DNA of 64,000 nucleotides from Candidatus Latescibacterota bacterium (GCA_965203175.1 OZ241867.1:3552001-3616000); one strand, 5' to 3'. Counted from the first letter of the stretch, positions 1,513-20,110 are shown. Notes: generated by a model not told the origin, from the sequence alone. A program made the numbers and translations.

Positions 1513-1591
1513 AAGAGGCGAGTTGAATCAGCAAACCTTGTGCAATTGCAGTCCCAGAGCGACGCCTTCCCGCGCCGCCTAAACTCAAATC

Positions 1592-2377: not shown

Positions 2378-2414
2378 TTGAAGCCAGATGGGAGCATTTC
2401 GGGAGTTGATTTGA

Positions 2415-3395: not shown

Positions 3396-3776
3396 TCGAA
3401 GGAAGGCATTAAAAAGCCAGACGCATTGCAGGCTCAAAGGAGAATGCTATGACTAAGTCCCGTCTCGACGAGTGCGGATGGACCAGCTTTAGAGCCGAAC
3501 TCTTCTTAGTTGAAAAAGACGAGCCACCCGGCTGAATCTTATACCATAAGGAGGCCCAGAATGACGCAGCATGGTGAATTCGGTCTATCGACCATAGGGC
3601 AAATCTCTGTCACCGTGAAGGACCTCGACAGGGCAGTTACCTTCTACCGCGATCAACTGGGAATGCAGCTCCTGTTTCGGGTGCCGAACATGGCGTTCTT
3701 TGATTGCTCAGGCGTACGCCTTATGTTGAGTATTCCGGAGGAGCAGTCTGACGATATCCACTCTTCTATTCTGTAT

Positions 3777-4936
3777 GGCGTTGTTGCATGAATCATATCT
3801 GGGGCATCATTGTCGAATGTTGTTTTTTGTTCAGTTGATTTTTTCTACTCGATACGACTGGGGTTTGCCCACATGGATCATTCGATTGAGGAGGGCACAG
3901 CCGAGGCGACTTTCGACCTGTTGGTTGATCCAGCTACGCGCCTTCAGCTTGTCGCCGATGAGGTGCTTATAGCGATAGATTTGCGTTTCGGCCAACGAGC
4001 GTCGATGATAGCCACTGGCCTGTTTCCACTCCTTGCGTCCCTTTCGTCGTATGGCCCGCAGGATTTCATCGCGCGCCAACGGGGGGACCTTACAATTACC
4101 ATGCTGATGGATTGTAGCGTCTTTGCGCAGTGCGATGATCGGCCGAATCGAGGGATCACTCCGCGTGGCCAAGGCGTCGAACACCTTCTGTTTGTCATAG
4201 GCCCCATCGCCGCCTACCGCCTCCACCGCCTCGTCGACTTGGGTCAACAGAGGGGCCACCTGCGAGGCATCATCGATCCGATGGGACGTCAACGTCTGCG
4301 CGACCACCTCGCCGGTGGCCTCGTTGACCCCCACATGCAGTTTGCGCCACGTGCGCCGTTTGGTCCAGCCGTGTTGACGGACTTTCCTCTCGCCCTCGCC
4401 ATAGACTTTCAAACCCGTCGAATCCACTACCAAGTGCATCGGGCTAGCCGGGCTATCGGGCTGCTTTTTCGGCAACTCCACCGCCAAGGCCCCTTGGCGA
4501 CGCGACAAGGTCGAGTAGTCCGGCACGGCCAAGGCCAACCCCATCAAGTCCAACAGCGATTGGATAAACCCCTGCGTCTGGCGCAACGGCAACCCAAGCA
4601 ACACCCGCATCGTCAACATCCATTCAATCGCTGGATCCGAATAGACAAACTGAGCACCCCGTTGCGATGGCCCCTGAGCATACCATTGCTTCCACAGACC
4701 ATCGTCCAGCCACACCGTCAGGCTACCACGAGCCACCAACGCCCGATTATACGACGACCAATTCTTAACCCGATACACCGGTTGCGACTTGACCGAGGGC
4801 GAACTGCCAGATACTTTGCTCATCACAGGCTCTTTGGGAAGAAAGGAACGTGTTTCTTGCTGGAAACCACGAACCAATCTAACCGAAGAGCCTGACTCAT
4901 TTCAAGACCCGAACACAGCTTTCATGCAACAACGCC
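3777..4936 (-). mobile_element. IS5 family (IS903-group) insertion sequence, copy 1
   Basis: 16-bp terminal inverted repeats GGCGTTGTTGCATGAA; 9-bp target duplication ATTCTGTAT at 3768-3776 and 4937-4945. Confidence 0.95.
3831..4823 (-). CDS. IS5 family transposase
   Basis: NWSSYNRALVARGSL, VVDSTGLK, WRKLH, DGAYD, YHRRSLAET (IS903-type DDE motifs). Confidence 0.95.
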   Translation of the reverse strand: MSKVSGSSPSVKSQPVYRVKNWSSYNRALVARGSLTVWLDDGLWKQWYAQGPSQRGAQFVYSDPAIEWMLTMRVLLGLPLRQTQGFIQSLLDLMGLALAVPDYSTLSRRQGALAVELPKKQPDSPASPMHLVVDSTGLKVYGEGERKVRQHGWTKRRTWRKLHVGVNEATGEVVAQTLTSHRIDDASQVAPLLTQVDEAVEAVGGDGAYDKQKVFDALATRSDPSIRPIIALRKDATIHQHGNCKVPPLARDEILRAIRRKGRKEWKQASGYHRRSLAETQIYRYKHLIGDKLKARSWINQQVESRLGCALLNRMIHVGKPQSYRVEKIN

Positions 4937-5228
4937 ATTCTGTATTACAGAGTTGATGACATTCATGACGCCTACCGGGTTTTGAAGGATAGGAACGTGC
5001 CGTTCGATGGAGAGCCTCACAAGATTGCTGATCTTCAAGACCACGAGTTATGGATGGCGTTTTTTCGAGATAGCGAGATGAACATCCTTGCGCTCATGGC
5101 TGAGAGGCCCCACGACGAATAGCCTCAGGTTCGTTCCCACTGCGGATAACAACGGTTAGGAACGGAAACGACCATAAGGAAGGGGGCAAAGGGGTATTTA
5201 TAGATACATAGTTTCAATAATATCTATT

Positions 5229-6410
5229 TTGTGCTTCACCAGCGGCGTTATGTCCGATGCTCTCAAGATTGGCTTTTGGGAAAAGCAGCGTAAGGGAGCT
5301 AATCAGCAAAACGAGCGACATCGTCCTGAGTGGTACAGAGCGGCAGGTGAACTGGGACTGGATTATGTTCGGATTTTACCCGATGCATGGCCCGCCGATA
5401 ATAGAGACTTCCTAATCGGCAACGCCGATAATTTCGCAGCAATCAATGAGACCGATCTAGCCCTGTTGATAGAAGCACTCAATGAAGCTGAGAGCAATGG
5501 TATCAAAGTTGTCCTTGCGATGGCCAGCTTGCCTGGCGCACGCTGGAAGCAGTTGAATGAGAACCAAGATGATGGCCGACTCTGGCGCGACGAAAGCTAC
5601 CATGAGCAAGCCTTCAATTTCTGGCGTCAGTTAGCAATGCGTTTGAAAAAGCATCCTGCAATCGTAGCTTACAATCCTCTTAATGAACCACATCCAGAGA
5701 AGGTATTCGGTTTTGAAGAACCGGACGAGAATTTCAGCCAATGGTTTCAGGGCATCCAGAATACGCCAGCTGACCTCAACCGATTTAACCAGCGGATGGT
5801 CGAATCCATCCGTTCAGTAGACGCAGATACACCCATCATGCTCGATGGCTGGTTCTATGCCGCTCCTCAAGCGTTCGACTTCAATCGTCCTGTAGATGAT
5901 GACAAAGTATTGTACGCTTTTCACAACCCCGGGCCGTGGCAGATGGTGACTTATAGAGTCAATAAGGGCCGGTACGCCTATCCAGACCGAGTTCCGAAGT
6001 GGTGGAACGGTCCTGTAGAGTCGTGGACTATCGATCGTCTTGCGGAGGAGACCAACGCGGTGCAGCGGTTTGCTGAGCGATATGAGATACCTTCTCACCG
6101 AATCATAGCTTCAGAATTCTGGTACGACCGCCGGCTCGAAGGCGCTGCAGCCTACCTGAGCGACCTAATAGAAATCTATAACAGCCGAGGTTGGCATTGG
6201 GCGTTTTACGCCTTTCGCGGTGGTGGATCATGGACGGGGTTAGATTATGAGATTGCACCGGATCACAAGATGGATTGGCATTATTGGCAAGCTGTCGAAC
6301 AGGGCAAAGACCCCGAGCAATTCAAGCCACGAGGAATGAACCCCTTGTGGAAAATACTACAACGCCAGTTTCGCAAAAACAGTAAGAGTCATGACGTCAT
6401 TCCCCCGTGA
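5229..6410 (+). CDS. Glycoside hydrolase family 5 (cellulase-type) protein
   Basis: YNPLNEP acid/base, AFH, IASEF nucleophile, HWAFY; exact start uncertain. Confidence 0.8.
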   Translation: MCFTSGVMSDALKIGFWEKQRKGANQQNERHRPEWYRAAGELGLDYVRILPDAWPADNRDFLIGNADNFAAINETDLALLIEALNEAESNGIKVVLAMASLPGARWKQLNENQDDGRLWRDESYHEQAFNFWRQLAMRLKKHPAIVAYNPLNEPHPEKVFGFEEPDENFSQWFQGIQNTPADLNRFNQRMVESIRSVDADTPIMLDGWFYAAPQAFDFNRPVDDDKVLYAFHNPGPWQMVTYRVNKGRYAYPDRVPKWWNGPVESWTIDRLAEETNAVQRFAERYEIPSHRIIASEFWYDRRLEGAAAYLSDLIEIYNSRGWHWAFYAFRGGGSWTGLDYEIAPDHKMDWHYWQAVEQGKDPEQFKPRGMNPLWKILQRQFRKNSKSHDVIPP

Positions 6411-7404
6411 TCGAGAATCTACGTCACCGATGGTGACGACTGAGGAAGCTTCAGACATTCTCTGGAAGTACTGGGGTATCGCAGCCGTTCAAGTAGAAAC
6501 GCCTACTTCCAGAAACGTCCATTTTGTGCGCAGCGCGCAAGGAGATTCTGTTCTGCGGACCAATCCGGGGTGGGATGGTCCCTCGCCGCCAGAGTTGATC
6601 GTTCGATTTGTGGACCATCTTTCATCCTCGGGAGCACCAGTTCCCAAGATTGTGCCAACTCTTAACGGCGAATTCTCAGTTCCATATCGGGACTATACAG
6701 TCTCCTTGGAGAGCCTGCTTCTAGGCCAACCGCTAGATTCTCGCCATCTCGACTATCTGAAGAAGGCGGGCAAGGTTCTTGCGAGCATTCACAATGCTGC
6801 CGGCTTATTTCAGGAACAGCCAGTGCGCGAGCGATCGGTCCGTCGCTGGGCGCAAGATCGGCTTTCCAGCGCGCTCGATCGGCTTGATGCGGAAATCGCA
6901 CAGCCAGTGCACGAATTAGTGCAACTGCTGGAAAGCAGCCATGCAACGGCTCTTGACGCAAGCGTCCCTTGGATCTTTTGCCATCGGGATGTTCGTGCGG
7001 GTAATGTGATCGGGGCCGGCACTGGCAGTGTCGCGTTCACGGATTTCAGCGGCGGGGAGTTTTCTCCATCTTTGGTGGATCTTGTCATGACGCGTCATCA
7101 GTGGTTAATGGGGGATTTTATGGGTAAATCTAGACCGCTGAATGTTTCGGAGGCGAGAGAGATATTGCTTGGCTATCACGAGGGGAGGGCTCTATCTCCG
7201 TCGGAAATAAGAGCGTTTCCGGTGGTTTGGGCAGCCTACTATGCAGATAGACTCAGCTTTCTTTACCGCAAGTGGGGTTCTAAAGTCACAGGTCCTCCAT
7301 TCTCGAATTTTGATATCCACGGTGAGTTGATGCTCCTACCACATCGAGGAATCGAGATGGGAGACGAATTGCTGGAGAGTGCTGGGATCTCCCACAGCCT
7401 ATGA
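6391..7404 (+). CDS. Phosphotransferase enzyme family protein
   Basis: CHRDVRAGN and TDFS motifs. Confidence 0.75.
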   Translation: MTSFPRDRESTSPMVTTEEASDILWKYWGIAAVQVETPTSRNVHFVRSAQGDSVLRTNPGWDGPSPPELIVRFVDHLSSSGAPVPKIVPTLNGEFSVPYRDYTVSLESLLLGQPLDSRHLDYLKKAGKVLASIHNAAGLFQEQPVRERSVRRWAQDRLSSALDRLDAEIAQPVHELVQLLESSHATALDASVPWIFCHRDVRAGNVIGAGTGSVAFTDFSGGEFSPSLVDLVMTRHQWLMGDFMGKSRPLNVSEAREILLGYHEGRALSPSEIRAFPVVWAAYYADRLSFLYRKWGSKVTGPPFSNFDIHGELMLLPHRGIEMGDELLESAGISHSL

Positions 7405-7422
7405 CACCGTATGAGGTGCTGA

Positions 7423-8250
7423 TTGGATCGAATAGCGACCTATTACAACAGAAAGAACGAGACCCAGCGTCTCTTTAGTGGCCGGGGTGAGCTAGAATTC
7501 CTCCGCACTAAACAGATCATAGAGCAGTTCCTCCCCGATGAAACTGGTTTGTCGATAGCGGATGTTGGTGGAGGATCTGGACCGTACGCGTTCTGGCTTG
7601 CCGAGAAGGGGCACAAGGTCGCCTTGTTTGATTTGATGCCGAACCATGTTGAAGAGGCCGCGTCGATCAACGAGAAAGCGCCAAATCCGCTCACTCGAAT
7701 CGAGACTGCCGATGTGCGATCCCTTGAACTAGAGTCTCAGCAGTATGATGTAGTCCTACTTTTGGGACCCATGTACCATCTCACCGATGCAAACGAGCGC
7801 AGTCTAGTGCTGCGGAAAGTCGCCGATTGGCTTTCTCCCAACGGTGTCGGATATGTAGCATATATTTCGAGGTTTGCGTCGATGTTGGATGGTTTCATAA
7901 GTGGCTTATTTGAGGATCCGGAATATCTGGATATTGCGCGGCAAGACTTAGAAACAGGTGTCCACCGTCCCAACAAGGACAATACCAAATACTTTACTGA
8001 TGCCTATCTTCATCACCCGGATGAGATCGAACGGGAAGCTGAGGAGGCACATTTACAGATCGTGGACCACGTCGCCATTGAGGGTGTGGAGTGGTTATGG
8101 CAGAATTTTGATCAAATTTGGTCGGATCCGCGACAACGGACTATCATGCTCGAGATGATAGACCGAACCGATCGAGATCGCTCTATGTTGGGTGCGAGTG
8201 GCCATATTCTTCTTGTTGTGAAGAGAGGACCAATCATCGATGGAAACTGA
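7423..8250 (+). CDS. Class I SAM-dependent methyltransferase
   Basis: IADVGGGSG, LLLGPMYHL. Confidence 0.85.
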   Translation: MDRIATYYNRKNETQRLFSGRGELEFLRTKQIIEQFLPDETGLSIADVGGGSGPYAFWLAEKGHKVALFDLMPNHVEEAASINEKAPNPLTRIETADVRSLELESQQYDVVLLLGPMYHLTDANERSLVLRKVADWLSPNGVGYVAYISRFASMLDGFISGLFEDPEYLDIARQDLETGVHRPNKDNTKYFTDAYLHHPDEIEREAEEAHLQIVDHVAIEGVEWLWQNFDQIWSDPRQRTIMLEMIDRTDRDRSMLGASGHILLVVKRGPIIDGN

Positions 8251-8620
8251 ACTTACTGCCGAAGATCGGCAACTCCTGCAGCACCTAGAAGAAGAACTGT
8301 GGCGAGCGGAAACGCGTTTCGACTTATCGAGAATGGAGGAAGTCATCGCCGAGGACTTCTTCGAGTTTGGCAGGTCTGGGCGTATCTACCAGCGCGCCGA
8401 CACGCTTGCGGTACCTTCAACGCCCATAGAAGCGGTGATTCCACTTCCAGACTTTGAGGCGCGTCTTCTTTGTGAAGGTGTCGCACAGGTAACGTACAAT
8501 AGTGTTGTCACCTATGGCGAAAATATCGAGGAGGCACGAAGGAGCTCAATCTGGACGCGATCGTCTGGTGGTTGGAAGCTGAGGTTCCATCAAGGGACCC
8601 CATTTTCGAGTGACGATTGA
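8240..8620 (+). CDS. DUF4440 / NTF2-like protein
   Basis: DFFEFGRSG ... RRSSIW ... WKLRFHQGT. Confidence 0.85.
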   Translation: METELTAEDRQLLQHLEEELWRAETRFDLSRMEEVIAEDFFEFGRSGRIYQRADTLAVPSTPIEAVIPLPDFEARLLCEGVAQVTYNSVVTYGENIEEARRSSIWTRSSGGWKLRFHQGTPFSSDD

Positions 8621-8650
8621 GCGGGCTTCTCAATTGAAAGAGAATCGGGT

Positions 8651-8705
8651 GCAGAACCAATAGTTGATGTCAGTTCGCGGGTTCGTGGGGCCGAGAACGT
8701 TAAAT
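8651..8705 (+). other. Shortened/degenerate attC site
   Basis: GCAGAAC ... GCCGAGAAC-GTTAAAT (GTTRRRY at 8699); right half nearly identical to the attC at 12890-12983. Confidence 0.55.
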
Positions 8706-8734
8706 GAAATAGCATAGAACGAGTCTGAATGTTT

Positions 8735-9229
8735 ATGGAGCGCATCAATTTCGAACGAGTAGTTCCAACCGACCTGAACCGATTTCGTCCACTCGTTGAA
8801 GCGTACTGGCTGGAGATCATGCCACATGCAGATACGGTATGTACATCTGATGGTCGGGATTCGTATTCCGCAGATCGATTTCCCCTTTCCAACACGGAAC
8901 CAAGGGTATTTTGGGGGCTAAGCGGAGGATCCCCGGTGGGATTTATTTCATTCGCCATCTCTGGCACTAGCGCAAAGATAAACGACTTCTACGTCGTTCC
9001 TTCCAAGCGCAGGAGGGGCATTGGGACGTTCTTGGTAAAATCAGCCATAGAAATTACCGACAGCATGGGAGTTGACCGGATCGATTTAAATGTCCGGCGA
9101 GACAATCCAGCAGCTTTGAAATTCTGGGAAGCACAAGGATTTATGATTGGGCACTACGAACTGATTCAATACCGAGATCCGGAAAAGCGAATTGGATTTC
9201 GAGGAGCTCTTTCCTCTGATTTCGTGTAG
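8735..9229 (+). CDS. GNAT family N-acetyltransferase, copy 1
   Basis: FYVVPSKRRRGIG acetyl-CoA motif, NPAALKFWEAQGF. Confidence 0.9.
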   Translation: MERINFERVVPTDLNRFRPLVEAYWLEIMPHADTVCTSDGRDSYSADRFPLSNTEPRVFWGLSGGSPVGFISFAISGTSAKINDFYVVPSKRRRGIGTFLVKSAIEITDSMGVDRIDLNVRRDNPAALKFWEAQGFMIGHYELIQYRDPEKRIGFRGALSSDFV

Positions 9230-9273
9230 TTGTGACGTTTTTTTTACTGTAAAGCGTGGCGTCTCGTCGCTCT

Positions 9274-9543
9274 TTAAATCGTCGTCGCCAAAAATCCTCC
9301 GTCAACGCGGATATCCGTACCGGTGACGAAGCCGCTGGCCGCGTCCGACGCGAGGAACACCGCTGCGCCGACCAGGCCCTCGGGACGGCCAAAGCGGTCC
9401 ATAGGCGTGTGGGAGAGGATTTGTTGGCCGCGCTCGGTTGGGGTACCGTCGTCTTCAAAGGGCAAGCGGCGGTTTTGCTCGGCAGGGAAGAAGCCCGGGG
9501 TGATGGAGTTGACCCGCACGCCTTTGTCGGTCTACTCCCGCAC
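9274..9543 (-). pseudogene. 3' fragment of SDR oxidoreductase, copy 1
   Basis: GVRVNSITPGFF...TPMDRFG...FVTGTDIRVDGG; 5' two-thirds absent; in-frame TAG at 9532-9534. Confidence 0.9.
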
Positions 9544-9617
9544 TGAGATCGGACGGCCTTGTCCTCTCAGCCGCTCGTTGCGATTGCTACTATGCACCAA
9601 GAGACGTACCTTCGTTT

Positions 9618-9678
9618 CGCATAAATGGCATCTAGCGGCCGTTACCTGAACCAATTGTTCGGGTACAAGCAGTTATTG
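9618..9678 (+). other. attI-like cassette insertion site, copy 1
   Basis: CGCATAAATGGCATCTAGC, inverted repeat TACCTGAAC-N5-GTTCGGGTA, then GTT at 9672 where the HNH cassette begins. Confidence 0.6.
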
Positions 9679-9722
9679 GTAATTGGGATAAATCGGTGAT
9701 TCGATGTAGAAGGGATTTTTAT

Positions 9723-10328
9723 ATGAATGGAAGGCAGCTTAACAACCGATGGAAAGTTGGTGTAAAACATTCTCTTTATAGAGAGTCGGGAGACTGGTAT
9801 CATCAGTTAAAGAGGTTTCCTGGGGCTTTTTTTGATAAGAATGGTTATGTCATATTCAATACAGAGGAAGAGTATAGAAGTTGCCCATATCTACAGATTA
9901 AGCGGGATGTTCATGTGCCTAGTGGCATCTCAGATATGCCCAACTATGTGAGAGTTATAATAAATGGGGAAGAAGTGCTCCCTACACAATCGACCAATGT
10001 CGGCGAAAAAGAAACATATTACGAAGGCAAACTCAAAGAAGTAATTCTTACCAAATACGAGAGGGATCCGAAAGCAAGAGCTAAATGCTTGGAAACGTAT
10101 GGTACGAACTGCACTGTTTGCATGATGAATTTCAAGGATAAATATGGAGAAATTGCCCAAGATATTATTCACGTTCATCACTTAACACCTTTAGCCGTAC
10201 AGAACCAAGAACATATTATCGATCCTATAAAGGATTTACGCCCTGTTTGTCCTAATTGCCATTCTGTAATACATAAAAGGAATCCACCTTTTTCTATTCA
10301 GGAAGTTAGAGCTAAGCTACTCAACTAG
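9723..10328 (+). CDS. HNH endonuclease (McrA-like) cassette gene
   Basis: EG...YERDPKARAKC, CTVC, IHVHHL, DLRPVCPNCH; AT-rich. Confidence 0.9.
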   Translation: MNGRQLNNRWKVGVKHSLYRESGDWYHQLKRFPGAFFDKNGYVIFNTEEEYRSCPYLQIKRDVHVPSGISDMPNYVRVIINGEEVLPTQSTNVGEKETYYEGKLKEVILTKYERDPKARAKCLETYGTNCTVCMMNFKDKYGEIAQDIIHVHHLTPLAVQNQEHIIDPIKDLRPVCPNCHSVIHKRNPPFSIQEVRAKLLN

Positions 10329-10345
10329 TAATGAATATCCACTAC

Positions 10346-10438
10346 CAATAACATATCCATTCACGCTGCGCACCATTCGGCGCTTGGGAGTATACCCATC
10401 CCGCATACGTGGGGCCGTGAATTGTGAGGACGTTAAGT
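10346..10438 (+). other. attC site
   Basis: CAATAAC ... ATTCACG/CGTGAAT inner arms ... GTTAAGT. Confidence 0.8.
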
Positions 10439-10461
10439 GAAAAACCAAAAGGAGAGAAGCA

Positions 10462-10828
10462 TTGCAGCGGCGTAGACGACAAACCCACTCGACGGAAATC
10501 AAGGGTCAGCGGTACATCTGGTACACGGATCGGCTATGGAAGCTAGCTCAAGAAACTACCCGAATTTGAAGTCGAGGTGGAGAGTTTTCAGGAACTAGAC
10601 CAAGACTGCTGGTTTGGCACGGGTCGTACGCCGACCATCCGAGAGGTGGCCGCTCACTGCAAACGAATCAACGAGGCCAACACCGACTTTCCCGTTGTTA
10701 TAAACGAGAACGGCCGTCTGATGGACGGCGGTCACCGTCTGGCTCGAGCCTTGCTTGAAGGGACTGCAACGATCAAGGCTGTCCAATTTGCACAGATGCC
10801 TGAGCCAGACGCCATCGAAGATATTTGA
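10462..10828 (+). pseudogene. Frameshifted ParB/Srx-like nuclease-domain cassette gene
   Basis: SD AAGGAG + TTG; YIWYTDRLWKLAQE then a +1 shift to LPEFEVEVESF...LMDGGHRLARA. Confidence 0.7.
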
Positions 10829-10845
10829 TAGTGACCATCGCTTAA

Positions 10846-12038
10846 GCGTAGTATCAACTAATTATTGTGAGAATTTGTCATCTACTGTTGTGAGAATCGG
10901 GGATGTATGCAATCCGAATGTGTCGATTCTTTCGTCGGTTCCGTCCTCGCAGATGGGCACTAATGCGGTGCTGTGTGGTCTTGGCATCCGCATCGTCGCT
11001 GTTGTCCAGCATCATCTGCTGGATATCGCTGAAGAGGGTTTCGACCGGATTATCATCCGGACTGCCTTTGGGTAAGCTGATCCAATGCAACTTCAACGTG
11101 CGCATGACTCGACGCGTCTCTTTCGATTTGCGCGGATGCGCTGGATCTTGATCCAAGATGATCCACACTGGTATGTCCGGATACCACGGCCGAATCCGCC
11201 GCATAAAACGGCCCACATAGGAGGAATCTTTGCCCTCATAAAAGGCCCAATGGACGCGACCACTCCCTACCTCATACAGCAAAAACAAATAGAATCGGCC
11301 GCGCGTCTTTTGCCGACGCTCCAGCACCAAGCGTTGCGCCGAGGTATAGCGTCGTCCCCCATACGCTTTGACGACCACCGGCTTGACATCGAAAAAGACC
11401 AAGACGCCCTCGTCGGGCACATGCCGCCAGCGCCAACGAATGCGGGCGAGAATGGCTGGACGCTGGGGATCGCTACTGATTAGCTTACGCTGGACATGCC
11501 GTAAACGGAACCCCCTTTTTTCAAAATGCGTCGAATATATTCACAACTTATTTTGGAGACTATGTGTTGCCGAATCAGATACGTGCGCAGCTTGGAAAGC
11601 GACCAACGTCCATAGGGCAAGCCTACCTCACAGGGAGGCTGCTCGGCCAGGCGACAGATGGCGGCCTTTTGCTCGGTGGTCAGACGAACAGGCCGACCGC
11701 GTTGGGTGGACTGCTCTATACTAGCCAGCCCCCGCTGATTAAAGGCATGCAAATCGGCGTAGATCGTATTGGGGTGGACTTCCAAGGTCTGGGCAATCTC
11801 CGTAGCGTTCATACCTTCGTTATACAGCAAAATAGCCTGTGCGCGACGCTGTTGAGCGGTTTCCAGTGGCTCCTCCACCCAGAGCAGAAGGCGTCCAATT
11901 TCAGCCGCGCAGGGTTTGCGTAATTTCAAAGGACGAGCCATAGTTGACCTCCGATTCTAAAAGAGGAGAGGAAAGGATGCCAATCTATTTTAACATATTT
12001 AGTTGACAAATTCTTACCTCATTTTGTTGATACTACGC
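10846..12038 (-). mobile_element. IS630 family insertion sequence
   Basis: Imperfect terminal IRs GCGTAGTATCAAC..AGAATTTGTCA; TTAA (central TA) on both sides at 10842-10845 and 12039-12042. Confidence 0.9.
10878..11941 (-). CDS. IS630 transposase split into HTH ORF (11480-11941) and DDE ORF (10878-~11520), probably joined by ribosomal frameshift
   Basis: HTH/GRP motifs, FFD, ILDQ, NPVE; slippery A6G5 at 11511-11521 on the minus strand. Confidence 0.85.
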
Positions 12039-12123
12039 TTAACAGCGGGTTAATGCTGCGTAGCCTTCGCCGCTTGGCCCTAATAGGCAACTTCGGAATT
12101 CATCAATCCGCACAACTTTATAG
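12037..12123 (+). other. attC site with IS630 at its R'' box and mutated R' box
   Basis: GCTTAAC-AGCGGGTTAATG ... CATCAATCCGC-ACAAC-TTTATAG (GTT changed to TTT). Confidence 0.7.
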
Positions 12124-12181
12124 GCCCTGACCACCGCTTTCTGCGCTCTGTTTCGATCTTCGTATGGTATTTTCCCTATGC

Positions 12182-12209
12182 TTGACAAGTGTACCATAAT
12201 TGGTACATT
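12182..12209 (+). promoter_or_regulatory. Sigma70 promoter with overlapping palindromic operator of the TA cassette
   Basis: TTGACA-N16-TACATT; perfect inverted repeat TGTACCA-TAAT-TGGTACA at 12190-12207. Confidence 0.8.
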
Positions 12210-12214
12210 GGAGG

Positions 12215-12568
12215 ATGATGAACAGAGACAAGCCGCTGCCAGTTCGCTTCTTCCGTACGACGACAGGGCGTGAGCCGGTGAGAGCATGGCTGCGCAGCCT
12301 GGATCGAGAGGCGAAGAGGATCATTGGTGCGGACATCAAGACCGTTCAGTTTGGGTGGCCCCTTGGAATGCCGCTGGTACGCAAGCTTGAGAGCGATCTT
12401 TGGGAGGTCCGTAGCACCCTGCCCAATTCGATAGCCCGAGTAGTCTTTACGGTCTACGAAGGGACGATCCTCCTGCTGCACGGTTTCATCAAGAAAAGTG
12501 AGAAGATCCTCGCCAACGATCTCACTTTGGCACGATCCAGATTAGCGATGCTCCGGGAGGCACGATGA
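12215..12568 (+). CDS. Type II TA toxin, RelE/ParE (Gp49-like) family
   Basis: GREPVRAWL, GWPLGMPLVRKL..LWEVR, LLHGFIKK. Confidence 0.9.
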   Translation: MMNRDKPLPVRFFRTTTGREPVRAWLRSLDREAKRIIGADIKTVQFGWPLGMPLVRKLESDLWEVRSTLPNSIARVVFTVYEGTILLLHGFIKKSEKILANDLTLARSRLAMLREAR

Positions 12569-12843
12569 AAAGACATGTCGGCAGCAGTTTTGATGAATTC
12601 CTCGCAGAAGAGGGCCTGCTCAGTGAAGCAGAGGCAACGGCCGTCAAACGCGTTATTGCCTATCAGTTGAGTCAGTTCATGGAGGAAAACAAGCTGTCCA
12701 AATCGGCGATGGCCAAGCGCATGCAAACTAGTCGGTCGGCGCTGGATCGTCTGCTTGACGCGTCCAATCCGTCCGTAACGCTACAGACCATGGATCGCGC
12801 AGCGCGGGCTCTGGGCAAAAAGCTCCGCATCGAGCTGATCTGA
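12565..12843 (+). CDS. XRE-family HTH antitoxin
   Basis: HVGSSFDEFLAEEG, MQTSRSALDRLLD; 4-bp overlap with toxin. Confidence 0.9.
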   Translation: MKRHVGSSFDEFLAEEGLLSEAEATAVKRVIAYQLSQFMEENKLSKSAMAKRMQTSRSALDRLLDASNPSVTLQTMDRAARALGKKLRIELI

Positions 12844-12889
12844 TTTCGCCTAAGGATTCGTCTTGTAGGCTATCGAATTTTTTCACGGC

Positions 12890-12983
12890 ATATAACACAT
12901 CGGTGTTGTGCTTTGTCGCCTTTCAGGCACCTTGGCCTCCGGCAACCCGCTTCGCAGGTTCGTAGGTGCCGAGAACGTTAAAT
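12890..12983 (+). other. attC site
   Basis: CATATAAC-ACA-TCGG ... CCGA-GAAC-GTTAAATG imperfect palindrome downstream of the antitoxin. Confidence 0.8.
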
Positions 12984-13012
12984 GAAATAGCATAGAACGA
13001 GTCCGAATATTT

Positions 13013-13507
13013 ATGGAACGCATCAATTTCGAACGAGTAGTTCCAACCGACCTGAACCGATTTCGTCCACTCGTTGAAGCGTACTGGCTGGAGATCATGC
13101 CACATGCAGATACGGTATGTACATCTGATGGTCGGGATTCGTATTTCGCAGAGCGATTTCCTCTTTCCAACACGGAACCAAGGGTATTTTGGGGGCTAAG
13201 CGGAGGATCCCCGGTGGGATTTATTTCATTCGCCATCTCTGGCACTAGCGCAAAGATAAACGACTTCTACGTCGTTCCTTCCAAGCGCAGGAGGGGCATT
13301 GGGACGTTCTTGGTAAAATCAGCCATAGAAATTACCGATGGCATGGGAGTTGACCGGATCGATTTAAATGTCCGGCGGGACAATCCAGCAGCTTTGAAAT
13401 TCTGGGAAGCACAAGGATTTATGATTGGGCACTACGAACTGATTCAATACCGAGATCCGGAAAAGCGAGTTGGATTTCGAGGAGCTCTTTCCTCTGATTT
13501 CGTGTAG
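13013..13507 (+). CDS. GNAT family N-acetyltransferase, copy 2
   Basis: About 8 substitutions relative to copy 1 by manual comparison. Confidence 0.9.
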   Translation: MERINFERVVPTDLNRFRPLVEAYWLEIMPHADTVCTSDGRDSYFAERFPLSNTEPRVFWGLSGGSPVGFISFAISGTSAKINDFYVVPSKRRRGIGTFLVKSAIEITDGMGVDRIDLNVRRDNPAALKFWEAQGFMIGHYELIQYRDPEKRVGFRGALSSDFV

Positions 13508-13551
13508 CTGTGACGTTTTTTTCACTGTAAAGCGTGGCGTCTCGCCGCTCT

Positions 13552-13824
13552 TTAGATCGTCGTCGCCAAGAACCCCCCGTCAACGCGGATGTCCGTGCCG
13601 GTGACGAAGCCGCTGGCCGCGTCCGATGCGAGAAACACCGCCGCGCCGACTAACTCCTCGGGGCGGCCAAAGCGGTCCATGGGGGTGTGGGAGAGGATTT
13701 GTTGGCCGCGTTCGGTTGGGGTGCCGTCGTCTTCAAAGAGCAAGCGGCGGTTTTGCTCGGCGGGGAAAAAGCCCGGGGTGATGGAGTTGACCCGCACGCC
13801 TTTGTCGGCCCACTCCCGTGCGAA
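13552..13824 (-). pseudogene. 3' fragment of SDR oxidoreductase, copy 2
   Basis: AREWADKGVRVNSITPGFF...DGGFLATTI; no Rossmann or YxxxK part. Confidence 0.9.
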
Positions 13825-13896
13825 GACCGGAGGGCTTTGTCCGCTCAGCCGCTTGTTGCGATTGCGACTATGAGCCAAGAGAAAGTACCTTCGTTT

Positions 13897-13955
13897 CGCA
13901 TAAATAGCATCTAGCGACTTGTACCCGAACTAATTGTTCAGGTACAAGCTTAAGC
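13897..13955 (+). other. attI-like site, copy 2
   Basis: CGCATAAATAGCATCTAGCGA, hairpin CTTGTACCCGAAC-TAATT-GTTCAGGTACAAG, then TTAAGC (TTRRRY, the G missing). Confidence 0.55.
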
Positions 13956-14022
13956 GTAAGTGGGCCGACAGAGAGACAACGGGTCACACACTTCTGACAA
14001 TGGAGGGGCGCTGGAGGAATTC

Positions 14023-14376
14023 ATGTCGCGCTGTGGATTGTGTCTACAGGATCGTGTCCTGAGGAAAAGCCATTTGATGCCTAAGTCCCTGTACAAGGTA
14101 CTTAGGAACGCATTTCCAGAGTCTGGAAAGGACCTTGTGTTCTCCTCCATGGAAGAGAGAAGCAGTGTCTATACTGATAACCAAGTCGTGACACCCTTCT
14201 TGTGTGACGCTTGTGAAGGAATTTTGAGTAGGAAGGGTGAACAGACCGTGTGTAGAGAGTGCCATCGCGGCCATGGCAAGTTCATACTGCGAGATGAAGT
14301 CAAGAAGGCCTCGGCCATACTCACCGAGGGTGGTGAGAGGTGGATCAACCCGATCAAGGAAACTACAGATCTGAAC
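14023..14376 (+). pseudogene. HNH-like Zn-binding protein truncated by IS5
   Basis: CGLC...SHLMPKSLY...FLCDACE; SD GGAGG; frame runs into the IS end. Confidence 0.65.
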
Positions 14377-15536
14377 GGCGTTGTTGCATGAATCATATCT
14401 GGGGCATCATTGTCGAATGTTGTTTTTTGTTCAGTTGATTTTTTCTACTCGATACGACTGGGGTTTGCCCACATGGATCATTCGATTGAGGAGGGCACAG
14501 CCGAGGCGACTTTCGACCTGTTGGTTGATCCAGCTACGCGCCTTCAGCTTGTCGCCGATGAGGTGCTTATAGCGATAGATTTGCGTTTCGGCCAACGAGC
14601 GTCGATGATAGCCACTGGCCTGTTTCCACTCCTTGCGTCCCTTTCGTCGTATGGCCCGCAGGATTTCATCGCGCGCCAACGGGGGGACCTTACAATTACC
14701 ATGCTGATGGATTGTAGCGTCTTTGCGCAGTGCGATGATCGGCCGAATCGAGGGATCACTCCGCGTGGCCAAGGCGTCGAACACCTTCTGTTTGTCATAG
14801 GCCCCATCGCCGCCTACCGCCTCCACCGCCTCGTCGACTTGGGTCAACAGAGGGGCCACCTGCGAGGCATCATCGATCCGATGGGACGTCAACGTCTGCG
14901 CGACCACCTCGCCGGTGGCCTCGTTGACCCCCACATGCAGTTTGCGCCACGTGCGCCGTTTGGTCCAGCCGTGTTGACGGACTTTCCTCTCGCCCTCGCC
15001 ATAGACTTTCAAACCCGTCGAATCCACTACCAAGTGCATCGGGCTAGCCGGGCTATCGGGCTGCTTTTTCGGCAACTCCACCGCCAAGGCCCCTTGGCGA
15101 CGCGACAAGGTCGAGTAGTCCGGCACGGCCAAGGCCAACCCCATCAAGTCCAACAGCGATTGGATAAACCCCTGCGTCTGGCGCAACGGCAACCCAAGCA
15201 ACACCCGCATCGTCAACATCCATTCAATCGCTGGATCCGAATAGACAAACTGAGCACCCCGTTGCGATGGCCCCTGAGCATACCATTGCTTCCACAGACC
15301 ATCGTCCAGCCACACCGTCAGGCTACCACGAGCCACCAACGCCCGATTATACGACGACCAATTCTTAACCCGATACACCGGTTGCGACTTGACCGAGGGC
15401 GAACTGCCAGATACTTTGCTCATCACAGGCTCTTTGGGAAGAAAGGAACGTGTTTCTTGCTGGAAACCACGAACCAATCTAACCGAAGAGCCTGACTCAT
15501 TTCAAGACCCGAACACAGCTTTCATGCAACAACGCC
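14377..15536 (-). mobile_element. IS5 family element, copy 2 (transposase 14431-15423)
   Basis: Apparently identical to copy 1 at an offset of exactly 10600; flanks GATCTGAAC / TTTAATAGG do not match, so there is no target duplication. Confidence 0.95.
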
Positions 15537-15537
15537 T

Positions 15538-18408
15538 TTAATAGGTGAAAGTAAAAATGACACAGACCGCTGGCGCTTACTTGGGATCGAACCAATTAGC
15601 TATCCGCAATCAAGCGAGGACGATCATAACATACTCTACGTGGGCGTCCGTGGTTTAGCCGACCTTGTCCAGCGCAGTGTCCTCGACTGGCAAGGCAAAA
15701 TTACTGAGATCGCGCAAAAACCACCTCCCCTTGAGGAGGAAATAGCCGACCTCATTGAGGATGCGCTTGAGGACGCCACGAGAACCCGGTTCTTCACCGA
15801 AGCGGCTTCAGATCCCAAATGGATTGATTGGCTCGACAGACGCGGACATCTAAATGCACTATTCGGCGACGAGACGCTCAGCAAGCGGGATAAAATCTTC
15901 TCTAAGTGGTTAGCCCAACAATTTGCATACAACCATGCTGATGCGCTGCTCCTGCTGATTGGCAAGCACAATATGCGCCTGCCTCCGCAACTCTGGTTCG
16001 ATTTGGGGAGAAAAATCTGGGAGGATGAAGATTTTTCGCTGGCTAGAGACGCTTTGTCTCGTTGGATTTCGCTCTTGCTTACTACCATTCCGGTGAATAG
16101 AAGTTCATATGCGTTTCTATTGAAAATAGGCGAGCATTGTATTAAGCGAGGCATGTTGGACAGTCTCTCGCAGATATTCAATGCAATGGCGGGAAGCCGC
16201 TTGCTTCTCAAGAAGGGTTTCGTTTGGCCCGATGCGAATGCGGGCGATGTGAACGCACCGGTTGATGTAGAATTGCCGCTGCTCGGCAATCACCACGCAC
16301 TAAATGAACTGTGGGAGAAAGGTCTGAAACCAAATTTATCTCAAATAGCCGAACCTGTATTTGAGCGGGTTATAAGACATATAGAAGAACAGTACCTCAC
16401 ACAAAATGCTTGGCAGAAGGCGAGTCGTGAGTGGGAAAGAGTAAGCTATAGGCGCTCTGCTATTGAGCCTCACGAGTTGGATAGTCACTCTCAAGCGGTT
16501 GACGTGTTGATCGATGCAGCACGAGACTGTCTTGAATGGTTGATCCTGAATCAAGCAGGTGCAGCGGCGCAGTGGTGTATCCGTCTTGCAAACTCGGATG
16601 CGCCACTGCTACGCCGCCTAGCGGTGCATGGGATATCCGAACGAAAAGACCTGACAGCAGATGATAAAACCGATTGGCTGCTAAAACATATAAATATACA
16701 CGAATTGCCTGTTCACCACGAAGTATTTCGGGCAGTACGGCTAGCTTACCCCAAGGCTAGCCCGGAACTCCGAGAGAACCTCATTGAAACCGTGTGGACC
16801 TATCGTTGGCCGAACGAGGAAGACCCCGACAGGGAAAGTCATACCGCATATCAGTATTTCAACTGGTTTTATTGGCTCCATAAATCAGATCTCAATTGTA
16901 CCATAGCTAAGCAAGCCTTGGATGAGATACAGGAGGAGTACCCAGACTTCAAACCAAGAGAGCATCCAGACCTGACTCATTGGAGTGGTCCAGTCCAGGA
17001 TGTCGTTATGCAAGGCCCTTGGACTGTTGAAGAGCTACTGGCAAAATCGGCTGCGGATTGGCTTGGCGACTTGTTGTCTTTCCAAAGCACTGAATTAAAT
17101 GGGCGCGATTTTTTGGGACTCAGGCGTGATGTCGCAGAAGCTGCAAGACAAAATTTTGATTGGGGTCTTGAGTTGGCCGACGCATTGGCTAAGGATGGAG
17201 AGTGGGACGTTCACTTCTGGGCCGACTTGATACACGCTTGGTCAGAGATGGAGTTGGATGAAGACGAGTATCGTAAAGTGCTTCACTGGCTAGGCAAGGC
17301 CGAGTTGTATCCAAAACACAATCGTGAGATCGCCAGTATGCTTCATGCGCTGGTGAAGGATGGAGGTACTTCCTATGCCTTGAATATACTTTCGCAGGCT
17401 AACAAGACCGCTGTGGCTTTGTGGCATCACTTTGATCGGACTGAGCAGATCGAGAGAACGGACAACTGGCTAGACATAGCCATTAACCATCCTACGGGAA
17501 TCCTTACCGAATTCTGGCTGAAGGGGCTCTCCCTATGGCGAAAGCAACAAGACCCTGAACTCATGAGTATCAGTGACGAGTACCGCATGGCACTATCAAA
17601 CATAGTGCAGGACCAGGAGCTACAGGGCAAACTGGGGCGGACTATTCTCGCGAGTCAATTTGGATTTCTCTTGGCCGTTGATGAGGCATGGACTCGGGAG
17701 AACCTGCTGCCGCTTTTTGATCCTGATAGCGATGACTTCCAAGCTGCTTGGAACGGCTTTCTGATTTGGGGAACCCTCAATCTTGCCGTGGCCGACGCTA
17801 TGGCCTACCTATTCCTCAAGGCTGTTGAGAGGATCGATGACAACCTCTCTAGTAAGCGCGACCGATTTATCAAATATTATATCTCTATGCTTGCGTACTT
17901 CGCTGAAGATCCTATTGGGCAATGGATTCCCGCGTTTTTCCAATGTCGTGGTCAAGAGGCTAAGAACCATTTTGCAGAAGAAGTGGGATATTGTCTGGGG
18001 GATCTAGATGAAGCAGAGCAACGAGAATGGTGGCGGCGTTGGCTTAAGCAATATTGGGAGCATCGCTTACAAGGTGTGCCGGCTGGTACCGTCCTTGAGG
18101 CTGGTGAGATCAAATACATGCTTGGCTGGTTGCCACGCTTGACCTCAGTATTTCCCGAGGCCGTTGATTTAGCAGTTCAGATGCCACCAACCCCATTGCA
18201 GGACTACTGGGTGATACATAAACTAGAAGAAGGCGATCTATGGCGGAGTCATCCCGAAGAGGTAGCGAAATTGTTGGTTCATTGGGGGAAGTGTGATTTA
18301 CAGGAAGAAGCATGGTTTTCAGGGGTGAAACTAATCAATAAGCTCCTTCAGTTGGACATTTCATCGGAACTCAAACAGCAACTGAAGGAACTGAAAGTTC
18401 AACTGTAG
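15538..18408 (+). pseudogene. 5'-truncated SIR2-associated DUF4020-type large helical protein (putative defence sirtuin)
   Basis: Frame open right up to the IS end (LIGESKNDTDRWRLLGIEPISYP...DH); Trp-rich ~950 aa body with RSAIEPH and AINHPTG motifs recalled from SIR2-DUF4020 proteins. Confidence 0.65.
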
Positions 18409-18577
18409 CTATGTGCAGATTGCTGAATCTCCACCGGCCCTAAACTCCTCACATAGATAAAGAAATCCGGTACTATAGCTTACAGGGCCCAAAACTCGGG
18501 TGCCCGCCGGCGTTTCTGCAAGAATAAGGGGAGTAATTGATACGAGACGATTCGTAGATAACCCCAGGAGAAGCGAC

Positions 18578-18838
18578 ATGAGCCGAGTAGATTTTCAGTT
18601 GCCCGATACAGTCTTTGAACGGCTACAAAAACTGGCTGCCCGCACGGGACGCAGCGAAACCGAATATATGATTGAGGCTATCCGAGAGTATCTGGATGAC
18701 CTCGAAGATTTGCATCTTGCCGAACAACGACTGAAAGACATTCACGAGGGGAAATCTCAGACCGTGCCTCTTGAGAAGGTCATGAAAGAGCATAGGCTTG
18801 GCAGATTGAGCTTGCCAAGGACGCCGAGCGCGAATTGA
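18578..18838 (+). CDS. Ribbon-helix-helix (CopG/RelB-like) antitoxin with altered C-terminus
   Basis: RLQKLAARTGRS...EAIREYLDDLEDLHLAEQRL; SD AGGAG. Confidence 0.8.
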   Translation: MSRVDFQLPDTVFERLQKLAARTGRSETEYMIEAIREYLDDLEDLHLAEQRLKDIHEGKSQTVPLEKVMKEHRLGRLSLPRTPSAN

Positions 18839-18866
18839 GAAGAATAGATCGACAAGCGGCAATGAA
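18796..18866 (+). pseudogene. N-terminal remnant of RelE-type toxin
   Basis: Overlapping frame reads AWQIELAKDAERELRRIDRQAA with no start codon and no continuation. Confidence 0.55.
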
Positions 18867-18880
18867 AAGGAGATGGACTC

Positions 18881-19123
18881 GTGATCAAGTCAACTCTAAC
18901 CGATAAATGGCAAACCACCATCCCGGTCGAAGTCCGCAAGGCGCTCCACCTCAAGCCTCGGCAGCAGCTCATCTACGAGTTGACTGACGGTGCCGTTTTG
19001 GTGAAGCCCCAGCCCGAAACGCTCAAGGATCTATATGGCTGTCTTGTAGATGGCAAACCCTCTGCTTCCAAATCCGAGGAACGAGAGACAGCACGCAAAG
19101 CAAGAGCGGTCAGATACGAATGA
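18881..19123 (+). CDS. AbrB/MazE/SpoVT family DNA-binding antitoxin (orphan)
   Basis: STLTDKWQTTIPVEVRKALHLKP. Confidence 0.8.
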   Translation: MIKSTLTDKWQTTIPVEVRKALHLKPRQQLIYELTDGAVLVKPQPETLKDLYGCLVDGKPSASKSEERETARKARAVRYE

Positions 19124-19192
19124 TCAAGTATCTCAAACGGCGCTCGCCATGAACGCTCATCAAGGTACTCGCCGCCATTTGCCCGCCTCAAA

Positions 19193-20110
19193 ATGAACTC
19201 TTTCCGCAACAACCGCCTACGCGACCATGAAACACCTCTGAGCACGGTGTGGCTGCTCAACGACATCGCCGAGTCAAAGGGCAAACAGGAGCTATTCACA
19301 CGCCATTCGCCACAAGCCCTCAAAGCACTTCGCGACATGGCTGTCATTCAGAGCGCTGAATCCTCCAACCGCATTGAGGGCGTGACGGTCGCCCAAGCTC
19401 GCCTTTATCCGCTGGTGCTCGGCCAAGCGAAACCCCGTGACCGCTCCGAGCAGGAGGTGCAGGACTATCGCCGTGCCTTGAACGAAATTCACTCCGACTA
19501 CGCCGCGCTTTCTATCACGCCGGACACCCTGCAACGCCTACATGCCCTTTGCCAATCCGCCAGCGGCGATGCGGGTCAATTCAAACAAGTCGATAACGAC
19601 ATTGTGGAATTCCTGCCCGGACAGGCCCCGGTCGTTCGGTTCCGCTGTGTGAAGGCTGCGGAGACTCCGGCGGCTGTAGAAGAACTCTGCCAGCATTATC
19701 AGCACGCCCTCGACCAAGAGAATATCCCGCCGCTCATCGCCATCGCCGCCCTCGTCTTGGATTTTCTTTGCATCCATCCTTTCCGGGACGGCAACGGCCG
19801 CGTGTCTCGACTGCTTACTCTGTTGGCGCTCTATCAGCACGGCTACGAGGTTGGTATTTACATCAGCTTGGAACGCCTCATTGAGGAATCTCAGGAGGAC
19901 TACTACGAATGCCTCCGGCTCAGTTCCCACCGCTGGCACGATGGCAAACAGGAACTGACGCCTTGGTCCAACTTCATCTTCGCGATCATCCGCCGTGCTT
20001 ACATCGAATTGGAAAAACGCGCCGGTCAGATCAAGGCCCACGGGGTGCCAAGTCCAAGCGGATACTCGCCACCATTCGCGCCCAACCGGGCGAATTCCGT
20101 TATTCAATAA
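19193..20110 (+). CDS. Fic family protein, C-terminus frameshifted/truncated
   Basis: SSNRIEG inhibitory motif, HPFRDGNGR; native tail GPRGAKSKRILATI lies in another frame. Confidence 0.85.
   Translation: MNSFRNNRLRDHETPLSTVWLLNDIAESKGKQELFTRHSPQALKALRDMAVIQSAESSNRIEGVTVAQARLYPLVLGQAKPRDRSEQEVQDYRRALNEIHSDYAALSITPDTLQRLHALCQSASGDAGQFKQVDNDIVEFLPGQAPVVRFRCVKAAETPAAVEELCQHYQHALDQENIPPLIAIAALVLDFLCIHPFRDGNGRVSRLLTLLALYQHGYEVGIYISLERLIEESQEDYYECLRLSSHRWHDGKQELTPWSNFIFAIIRRAYIELEKRAGQIKAHGVPSPSGYSPPFAPNRANSVIQ

Follow-up and report, generated by a model that had tools for sequence, protein, structure and literature searches.

How does an array of gene cassettes with no integron integrase beside it come to hold the same 1-kb segment twice, each copy ending in the same hairpin and each followed by a different cassette? 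This question is raised by a stretch of 64,000 nt from Candidatus Latescibacterota bacterium (GCA_965203175.1, OZ241867.1:3552001-3616000), which was analysed at its full length and is called the window below, with positions counted from its first letter. It touches two open questions of integron biology, the origin of integrase-less attC clusters and the birth of new cassettes. An attC site has a 3' box, GTTRRRY, in which the integrase (IntI) crosses over between G and TT (marked here by a caret, G^TT), and a 5' box, RYYYAAC, complementary to the first bases of its own cassette; the whole is an imperfect palindrome with extrahelical bases and acts as folded single strands. An attI site is present in a single copy, with a divergent intI gene on one side and the first cassette on the other. 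The repeat in the window consists of a GNAT acetyltransferase gene, which is intact, a relic of an SDR gene (its 3' third, on the opposite strand), a spacer, and an attC-type site of 49 nt (Table 1). In our reading, to which we give a probability of roughly 0.5, modules of an integrase-less cassette array were stacked here, and the two copies are the seams where the tail of one module meets the head of the next.

The repeat and the border-gene relic it carries

The direct repeat reported by the initial annotation was borne out by a repeat search and a pairwise MAFFT alignment: positions 8674-9670 and 12951-13949 are about 96% identical over about 1 kb, with a start-to-start distance of 4278-4279 nt, and the identity matrix gives 95.7% for copy 1 against copy 2 over 8735-9541. 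The tail of the repeat is non-coding in both copies, its last part being GTACCYGAAC-NAATT-GTTCRGGTAC-AAGC (9643-9670 and 13921-13949); the sequence GAACNAATTGTTC has two matches in the 64 kb, both at the repeat ends, compared to 0.31 expected. The shared sequence stops at AAGC, after which copy 1 continues as AG^TTATTGG and copy 2 as TTAAGCG, in agreement with the earlier observation that both copies end at the same non-coding hairpin element and that different cassette starts follow (GTTATTG at 9672, TTAAGC at 13950). The left edge falls within the 3' half of an attC, a point that had not been noted before, with a canonical crossover, G^TTAAATG, at 8699^8700 and at 12977^12978. In copy 1 this half-site (site a) is matched by an nhmmer profile of attC 3' halves at 8673-8704 (E 0.03; profile positions 10-42 only), its GGCCGAGAACG^TTAAATGAAA is also present at 12967-12987, and no attC-like fold was predicted for 8621-8705 (z -0.01). 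Upstream of the left G^TT, the copies remain homologous for about 26 nt (about 90% identity), as far as the apical loop of site c, the complete attC at 12889-12983, the 5' half of which is missing from copy 1; this end looks like the end point of a deletion.

A contig search with the GNAT protein yielded 21 loci, 12 of them close (71-95% identity); the close loci all come from metagenome-assembled genomes (MAGs), with the label Latescibacterota in every case but L002 (Gemmatimonadetes). The window GNAT protein is 86-95% identical to those of L001-L009. In three of the 21 fetched loci (L001-L003), a GH5-APH-methyltransferase-DUF4440-GNAT block ends at a full-length, convergent SDR gene (268-270 aa), past which lie the genes for DUF445, Ddl (D-Ala-D-Ala ligase) and creatininase. 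At 91-97% DNA identity, window positions 5158-9541 are collinear with L002 and L003, and 8240-9540 with L001; the other nine close loci have the GNAT gene alone in common, always in long co-oriented arrays. With the intact 268-aa orthologue (L001:10525-11331) as the reference, tblastn recovered aa 181-268 in copy 1 and aa 180-268 in copy 2 of the truncated minus-strand SDR, the presence of which in both copies had been annotated. Because the SDR gene is intact at the array tail in L001-L003, we take it to be a chromosomal gene that borders the tail, and the window fragments to be its relics. The proposal that the SDR fragment occupies the place of intI was not upheld, since intI was never required at this border. 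The intact SDR-DUF445-Ddl block, expected at the array tail, is not in the window.

The homology of the relics to the intact gene, both in DNA and in protein, ends at 9540-9541 in copy 1 and at 13821-13826 in copy 2. All three intact orthologues contain a perfect core-type motif, GTTAGGT, 6-14 nt past this break (L001:10805-10811), and when a small indel is allowed, SDR similarity is readable up to the G^TT of this motif. These observations suggest, as a reasonable inference from the sequence, that an integrase-type event made the break and used a secondary (attG-like) site for it. The sequence past the break (9559-9629 and 13836-13908) was considered as diverged SDR and rejected, with z of about 0 in two shuffle-controlled tests. 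The junction of SDR, spacer and element recurs at L002:660-785 and L003:7679-7796, with an internal 220-nt deletion; as it is common to the window, L002 and L003, we take all copies of the junction to descend from one founding event. In L002, a decayed seam with a single copy of the element directly follows an FAD-oxidoreductase gene at the array head. L003, the record of which is titled chromosome-level, has SDR relics at 1135-1160, 7679-7729 and 8442-8733 within its array, in addition to the intact gene, and the left half (7735-7796) and right half (1411-1465) of the element at separate places. A DUF4258-DUF2283 gene pair, a putative toxin-antitoxin cassette, was also observed between two of the SDR relics of this locus (L003:7820-8346).

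The GNAT parts of the two copies are 98.4% identical and the SDR relics 91.3%. In the identity matrix, the relics are no closer to each other than either is to L002 or L003. Because the divergence between the relics equals their distance to these loci, the duplication appears to be old, and the repeat is unlikely to be one locus duplicated or collapsed in assembly. Another kind of artefact, in which two strains or paralogous regions had been joined and no cell had the tandem arrangement, would be in line with the window's probable origin in an assembly of an uncultured organism, its closest relatives all being MAGs, and with the copies differing by 4-9%, which is about the distance between sister genomes. 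However, a chimeric join within the repeat gives one copy rather than two with 3.3 kb of unique cassettes between them, and the array of L003 has multiple SDR relics, too; we regard an assembly artefact as extremely unlikely.

The 49-nt terminal element

The layout of the terminal element was parsed by eye, and its hairpin was predicted by folding. In copy 1, as at L002:735-785 and L003:1411-1465, a 7-nt box, a 5-nt spacer, a 10-bp stem with its loop, a second 5-nt spacer and G^TT follow one another; the parts are ordered alike in copy 2, but its second spacer is 4 nt long and the G is missing. One crossover point precedes four unrelated units in three genomes: the downstream starts are TTATTGG (HNH endonuclease) and TTAAGCG (Cys-rich open reading frame, ORF) in the window, TTAGCTG in L002 (ORF 817-1476) and TTATGTG in L003 (NUDIX). 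Four unrelated partners at the same nucleotide would be the signature of a recombination site that has been used. The boundary 9672^9673 in turn is a genuine cassette boundary: CCAATAAC, with which the HNH attC starts (10345-10352), is exactly the reverse complement of GTTATTGG (9672-9679; 8/8); this attC is found by nhmmer with E 7e-4, the site being in the training set of the profile. The initial annotation had described the element as a recombination site followed by a different first cassette in each copy, and this part of it stands. By its anatomy and position only, we assign the element to the attC type as a candidate. Its 3' box reads G^TTATTG in copy 1, G^TTAGCT in L002, G^TTATGT in L003 and C^TTAAGC in copy 2, so the RRRY part, which is supplied by the neighbouring cassette, deviates at all four element copies. 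A bottom-strand stem of 9-13 bp is predicted, and in copy 2 none of 200 shuffles folds as well.

The element is not the native attC of the GNAT cassette, which has been lost from the window, because the GNAT attC of L010 is different and a relic of it persists in L003. In L010, GNAT is a complete cassette that starts at G^TTAAATG as in the window and has its own attC, which ends at GAC^GTTAAGCG and has a first box, CATTTAAC, that is the exact complement of the cassette start GTTAAATG; in L003, CATTTAAC persists between GNAT and SDR.

The locus had originally been interpreted as a former integron platform that lost intI or had it replaced, with two attI-like heads that were loaded independently. 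Like an attI, the element has a constant left flank and variable cassettes on its right, and the whole array of L002 has it as its first recombination site, just after the FAD-oxidoreductase gene; it is also no close sequence relative of the array's attC family. Conversely, its hairpin and two boxes give an attC-like layout, the unit begins at another attC, and the neighbour of the element on the minus strand is what remains of an SDR gene that is core-adjacent and intact in three loci. An attI is single, whereas the element occurs twice in the window and its halves lie at two places in L003. The array was correctly described as integrase-less within the window: none of 60 window ORFs matches the tyrosine recombinase family PF00589, a scan that fragments below the ORF cut-offs would escape. 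No integrase or fragment was found either in 162 ORFs from L001-L012 and L014, out of the 198 of at least 180 aa in L001-L014; the 36 unscanned ORFs are mostly L005-L009 orthologues of scanned ones, with ten from L012 and all seven of L013. The homologues of the element, which were predicted to lie between intI and a first cassette, were located by BLASTN in L002 and L003, with no intI found adjoining in the scanned ORFs. We consider the lost platform a very unlikely explanation; the stacking of modules through the GNAT-SDR arm, which had been mentioned as the alternative, fits the data better.

Several further searches with the element returned nothing. Neither GAACNAATTGTTC nor GCATCTAGCG had an exact match in the 21 loci, and element homologues surfaced by BLASTN only. 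Rfam contains no such family and gave no hits in 1-24000; the promoter and terminator scan detected nothing in the element and five promoter-like sites in 8500-14500, compared to 5.3 expected. Inspection by eye led us to reject the hairpin as a dif/Xer-like site (no second arm), a transposon end (no boundary transposase) or an intrinsic terminator (no T-run). RNAalifold found no consensus structure on the MAFFT alignment of 13 sites, in which the boxes are mis-registered.

Origin of the two copies

In the reading that we favour, a module tail would be the GNAT cassette without its own attC, followed by 44 nt and the 3' third of SDR, and a module head would be the spacer of about 70 nt and the 49-nt site, with cassettes after it. 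The SDR gene and the spacer would have been joined at, or within a few bases of, GTTAGGT by integrase-type recombination at a secondary site; the tail-head block would then have been duplicated by unequal exchange across the GNAT-SDR homology, rather than by clean excision and re-insertion, with cassette turnover and deletions afterwards. The 49-nt site would act as an ordinary cassette recombination site, because unrelated cassettes follow it at a canonical G^TT, and would be served by a putative integron integrase encoded elsewhere. This reading draws on the anatomy of the units, the intact SDR of the relatives, the common break point, the four partners at the same nucleotide and the age of the duplication.

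Alternatively, the span from 8700 (G^TTAAATG) to the G at 9672 could be a single composite cassette of 973 nt, with the element as its attC, which was excised and re-inserted behind the attC of the toxin-antitoxin cassette. Both ends of the repeat indeed coincide with G^TT points of attC-type sites (8699^8700 and 9672^9673), and the box ATCTAGC is complementary at 5/7 positions to the module start GTTAAAT and, in copy 2, at 6/7 to the SDR stop region TTAGAT. In L003, the stop-codon motif is the exact starting point of two SDR relics (G^TTAGAC at 1135; TCAGAT at about 7677), as if a cassette started there, and the 26-nt upstream similarity may be a family resemblance, given that an unrelated attC of L010 (3979-4066) is about 87% identical there. 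However, GNAT has a different attC in L010, which the window has lost; the complementarity is weak, with all crossover boxes in the array being alike (GTTA-R-N-T); and the SDR junction event would still be needed to create copy 1. Homology also passes the left bound, at the divergence of the neutral parts of the repeat, which suits a segmental copy better. This single-cassette origin is possible, but we hold it to be rather unlikely. Because the upstream homology passes the left crossover at a neutral-like divergence and stops in an apical loop, segmental duplication with deletion appears to fit better than clean integrase-mediated re-insertion.

It should be noted that a number of observations weigh against stacked modules joined at attC-type sites. 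The first box of the element always ends in AGC instead of AAC (ATCTAGC in copies 1 and 2, ATATAGC in L002, CGCTAGC in L003). The element is 49 nt long, versus 53-95 nt for the attCs of the family, and extrahelical bases are not evident. Its hairpin is significant only in copy 2 (z -4.68) and L002 (z -2.71), compared to -0.13 in copy 1 and -1.15 in L003; for comparison, the attC at L006:13114-13166 has a 6-bp outer helix, an internal loop and a 14-bp stem with a loop (z -6.75). Among the four element copies there are no compensatory double changes, the differences being single wobbles or mismatches. None of the four is among the 31 hits (E <= 10) of the nhmmer profile, built from 13 family attC 3' halves, which did recover untrained sites such as L005:1055-1093, and none is among the 14 hits of the covariance model R1, built from four near-identical attCs; both the profile and the model are narrow and family-specific. 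Chance alone would place a GTTRRRY motif within about 8 nt of a break in roughly 2-3% of cases, so that the motif beside the SDR break is suggestive rather than proof. The sequence after the SDR break (TTTGTCC or TTGTCC) is not complementary to the first box of the 49-nt site, so the spacer and site do not form a clean, self-contained cassette. Finally, the three modules have no cassette in common except GNAT, and heavy turnover must therefore be assumed, and the absence of an integrase from the scanned window and locus ORFs makes the integrase in trans hypothetical.

A further step can be considered more tentatively, namely that the captured piece of the flanking SDR gene, taken up by off-site integrase recombination at a core-like motif within this conserved chromosomal gene, serves as a portable homology arm linked to the attC-type site. 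Through this arm, homologous recombination would stack modules, release circles or re-seat modules beside the SDR gene, and the linked site would still accept cassettes from an integrase acting in trans. We find this doubtful; if true, it would be a natural example of chromosomal DNA entering cassette-like units and a second, RecA-based mode of growth for attC clusters that have no integron integrase (CALINs).

The cassette array and its place among known systems

The array (about 1513-20100) has a GC content of 47-55%, compared to 55-66% in the rest of the window, and is flanked on its left by a gene for aldehyde dehydrogenase and on its right by one for GDP-mannose dehydratase. Its genes are small and co-oriented (methyltransferases, phosphotransferase-family, glyoxalase, GH5, DUF4440, GNAT, HNH, a Gp49/HigB-HTH pair, Dsr1-like and Fic), and the attC family recurs in L002 and L005-L010. 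The HNH, DGGHR and toxin-antitoxin units (Table 1) are bona fide cassettes because the first box of each attC complements the first bases of its own cassette. For the DGGHR cassette, the box GCTTAAC matches at 6/7 positions, or at 8/8 when compared to the start of the L001 orthologue (L001:7472-7881, 93% identity), in which the homology starts exactly at GAC^GTTAAGC; for the toxin-antitoxin cassette, ATATAAC is complementary to the start TTATAG at 6/7, and nhmmer finds its attC, site c, at E 2e-6 (also a training site). A strict scan (RYYYAAC...GTTRRRY, 45-160 nt apart, at least 6/7 complementary) recovered only three loci in the window (six rows over both strands), including the HNH attC, and is too strict for this family.

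Table 1. Coordinates of the repeat copies, their parts and the adjoining cassettes in the window (sister loci where stated); a caret marks the crossover point.
Feature	Position	Strand	Description and support
Site a	8673..8699	+	3' half of a family attC, 5' half gone; last base is the crossover G8699
Repeat copy 1	8700..9672	+	Span between two G^TT points: GNAT cassette body, 44-nt SDR 3' flank, SDR relic, spacer and attC-type site; alignment, identity matrix
GNAT gene, copy 1	8735..9229	+	Intact, 164 aa; Pfam PF00583, E ~2.8e-16
SDR relic, copy 1	9274..9540	-	3' third of the gene, aa 181-268 and stop, with an internal stop codon; tblastn, 92% identity to intact L001 SDR; Pfam adh_short_C2 positions 166-235 of 236
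Spacer, copy 1 (~70 nt)	9559..9629	+	Between SDR relic and site; conserved at L002:690-735 and L003:7735-7796 (BLASTN, alignment)
attC-type site, copy 1 (putative)	9630..9678	+	ATCTAGC(9630-9636)-GGCCG-TTACCTGAAC-CAATT-GTTCGGGTAC-AAGCA-G^TTATTG; crossover 9672^9673
HNH-endonuclease cassette	9673..10432	+	ORF 9696-10328, Pfam HNH, E 1.3e-5; attC 10345-10438, bottom-strand fold
DGGHR-motif protein cassette	10433..12117	+	Frameshifted; IS630-like element inside
Toxin-antitoxin cassette	12118..12977	+	Gp49/HigB-like 12200-12568, HTH 12565-12843 (Pfam); attC 12889-12983 (site c)
Repeat copy 2	12978..13949	+	GNAT, SDR relic, spacer and site, in the order of copy 1
GNAT gene, copy 2	13013-13507	+	Intact; Pfam PF00583
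SDR relic, copy 2	13552-13821	-	aa 180-268; tblastn against L001
Spacer, copy 2 (~70 nt)	13836-13908	+	As in copy 1
attC-type site, copy 2 (putative)	13909-13955	+	ATCTAGC-GACTT-GTACCCGAAC-TAATT-GTTCAGGTAC-AAGC^TTAAGC; crossover G absent
Next cassette start	13950..14376	+	Cys-rich ORF without Pfam match; cut by second IS5-like copy (14377-15536)
GTTA-N-N-T-GAAA(T) starts	8699, 10432, 12977; L001:6763, 7475; L002:779, 1539, 2794; L003:2987, 8737		

Several side observations concern the cassettes themselves. Their starts share GTTA-N-N-T-GAAA(T), which is longer than the 7-nt box; this integron lineage may thus have a recognition sequence that extends beyond the box, or a 5' leader that is conserved. 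Two attCs (window 8674 and L003 at about 8441) are cut exactly at the apical loop and joined to unrelated sequence, as if hairpin tips favoured deletion ends. GTTGAAT, which fits GTTRRRY, lies at 1522-1528, ten bases past the stop codon of the aldehyde dehydrogenase gene, and is followed by a methyltransferase, the first cassette-like gene; the head of the array may join core DNA at this point. L001:7504-7872 encodes a 122-aa DGGHR protein without a Pfam match; the window copy (10463-10828) has a 1-nt insertion that leaves an 83-aa C-terminal ORF open.

The array also contains insertion sequences (IS). An IS630-like element at 10845-12039, with DDE_3 and HTH ORFs in two frames, 56-nt imperfect inverted repeats and a TA duplication, is inserted in the first attC box of the DGGHR cassette (GCT^TA^AC, carets here marking the insertion). 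Two IS5-family copies (3777-4936 and 14377-15536; DDE_Tnp_1_5) are 99% identical. A glyoxalase gene is split by the first, which is flanked by a 9-bp target duplication, ATTCTGTAT. The second cuts the Cys-rich ORF short and lacks such a duplication (GATCTGAAC on its left, TTTAATAGG on its right), a sign that the array's right end may have undergone a rearrangement or deletion mediated by an IS. Duplication of the repeat as a composite transposon was rejected, the IS630-like and IS5-like elements not being at the repeat boundaries. The right part of the island (15640-18408, 18500-19123 and 19193-20110) holds defence-type genes: a 922-aa DUF4020 protein similar to the C-terminal two thirds of PADLOC Dsr1 (E 4.5e-24), with its first ~180-240 residues showing no match to the N-terminal part of Dsr1, RHH and PrlF/MazE-like antitoxin ORFs, and a Fic protein similar to SoFic (E 9.5e-37). 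Outside the array, and unrelated to it, are tandem repeats with a 126-nt period (54425-55319) in the gene of a 954-aa WD40 protein and a 95-nt direct repeat (60955-61151, 80% identity) in an NYN/YacP-like gene.

The window and the three sister loci form a natural series, in which the array tail, the border gene and an attC-type site have become fused, with a core-like motif at the join, and the fusion has then been propagated. The locus may record how, in nature, a cassette-type unit draws in chromosomal DNA. Should an integrase have made the fusion, it would provide field evidence for off-site events that have so far been demonstrated in laboratory experiments alone (10.1101/2022.09.11.507474); if not, the locus is ordinary, namely an array in decay in which a segment has been duplicated. 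A literature search on Latescibacter integrons, judged by titles and the beginnings of abstracts, returned no paper on integrons of this phylum.

Compared to attC (59-base element), the 49-nt site has the two outer 7-nt boxes, the 5-nt spacers, the inner imperfect palindrome and the G^TT crossover, and it closes a unit on the 3' side, with the next cassette following directly; unlike attC, it is short, has AGC for AAC in the first box and no evident extrahelical bases, and is missed by the local-family profile and covariance model. The unusual delta-attI-type cassettes of mobile integrons (PMC12901181) show that units with non-canonical or partial att sites at their bounds can lie inside arrays and still recombine. 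They contain recognisable fragments of attI1 or attI2 from clinical class 1 and class 2 integrons; in contrast, nothing in the window array is traceable to an attI. A CALIN is defined as clustered attC sites without an integron-integrase (Cury et al. 2016, 10.1101/030866), and that paper lists several untested routes for the origin of such clusters. The window array is CALIN-like: it has attCs at 10345-10438 and 12889-12983, the half-site at 8673-8699, the two 49-nt sites, co-oriented small cassettes, some of them without database homologues, IS elements inside, and no integrase found in the 64 kb. It differs from the CALINs covered there in that its attCs were called by hand, with a home-made profile and box complementarity, several being half-deleted, and in that it holds repeated relics of a flanking chromosomal gene. 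As to secondary-site events, integrases insert cassettes at non-att genomic sites (attG), and excision can use other nearby genomic sites, according to 10.1101/2022.09.11.507474, in which such events were made experimentally in E. coli with IntI1. The locus resembles these events in the break of a chromosomal gene at a GTT-containing motif joined to array DNA, and in the genome flank carried along with a cassette-type site; it differs in that the event is deduced from a natural junction and in that the partner has no expected box complementarity.

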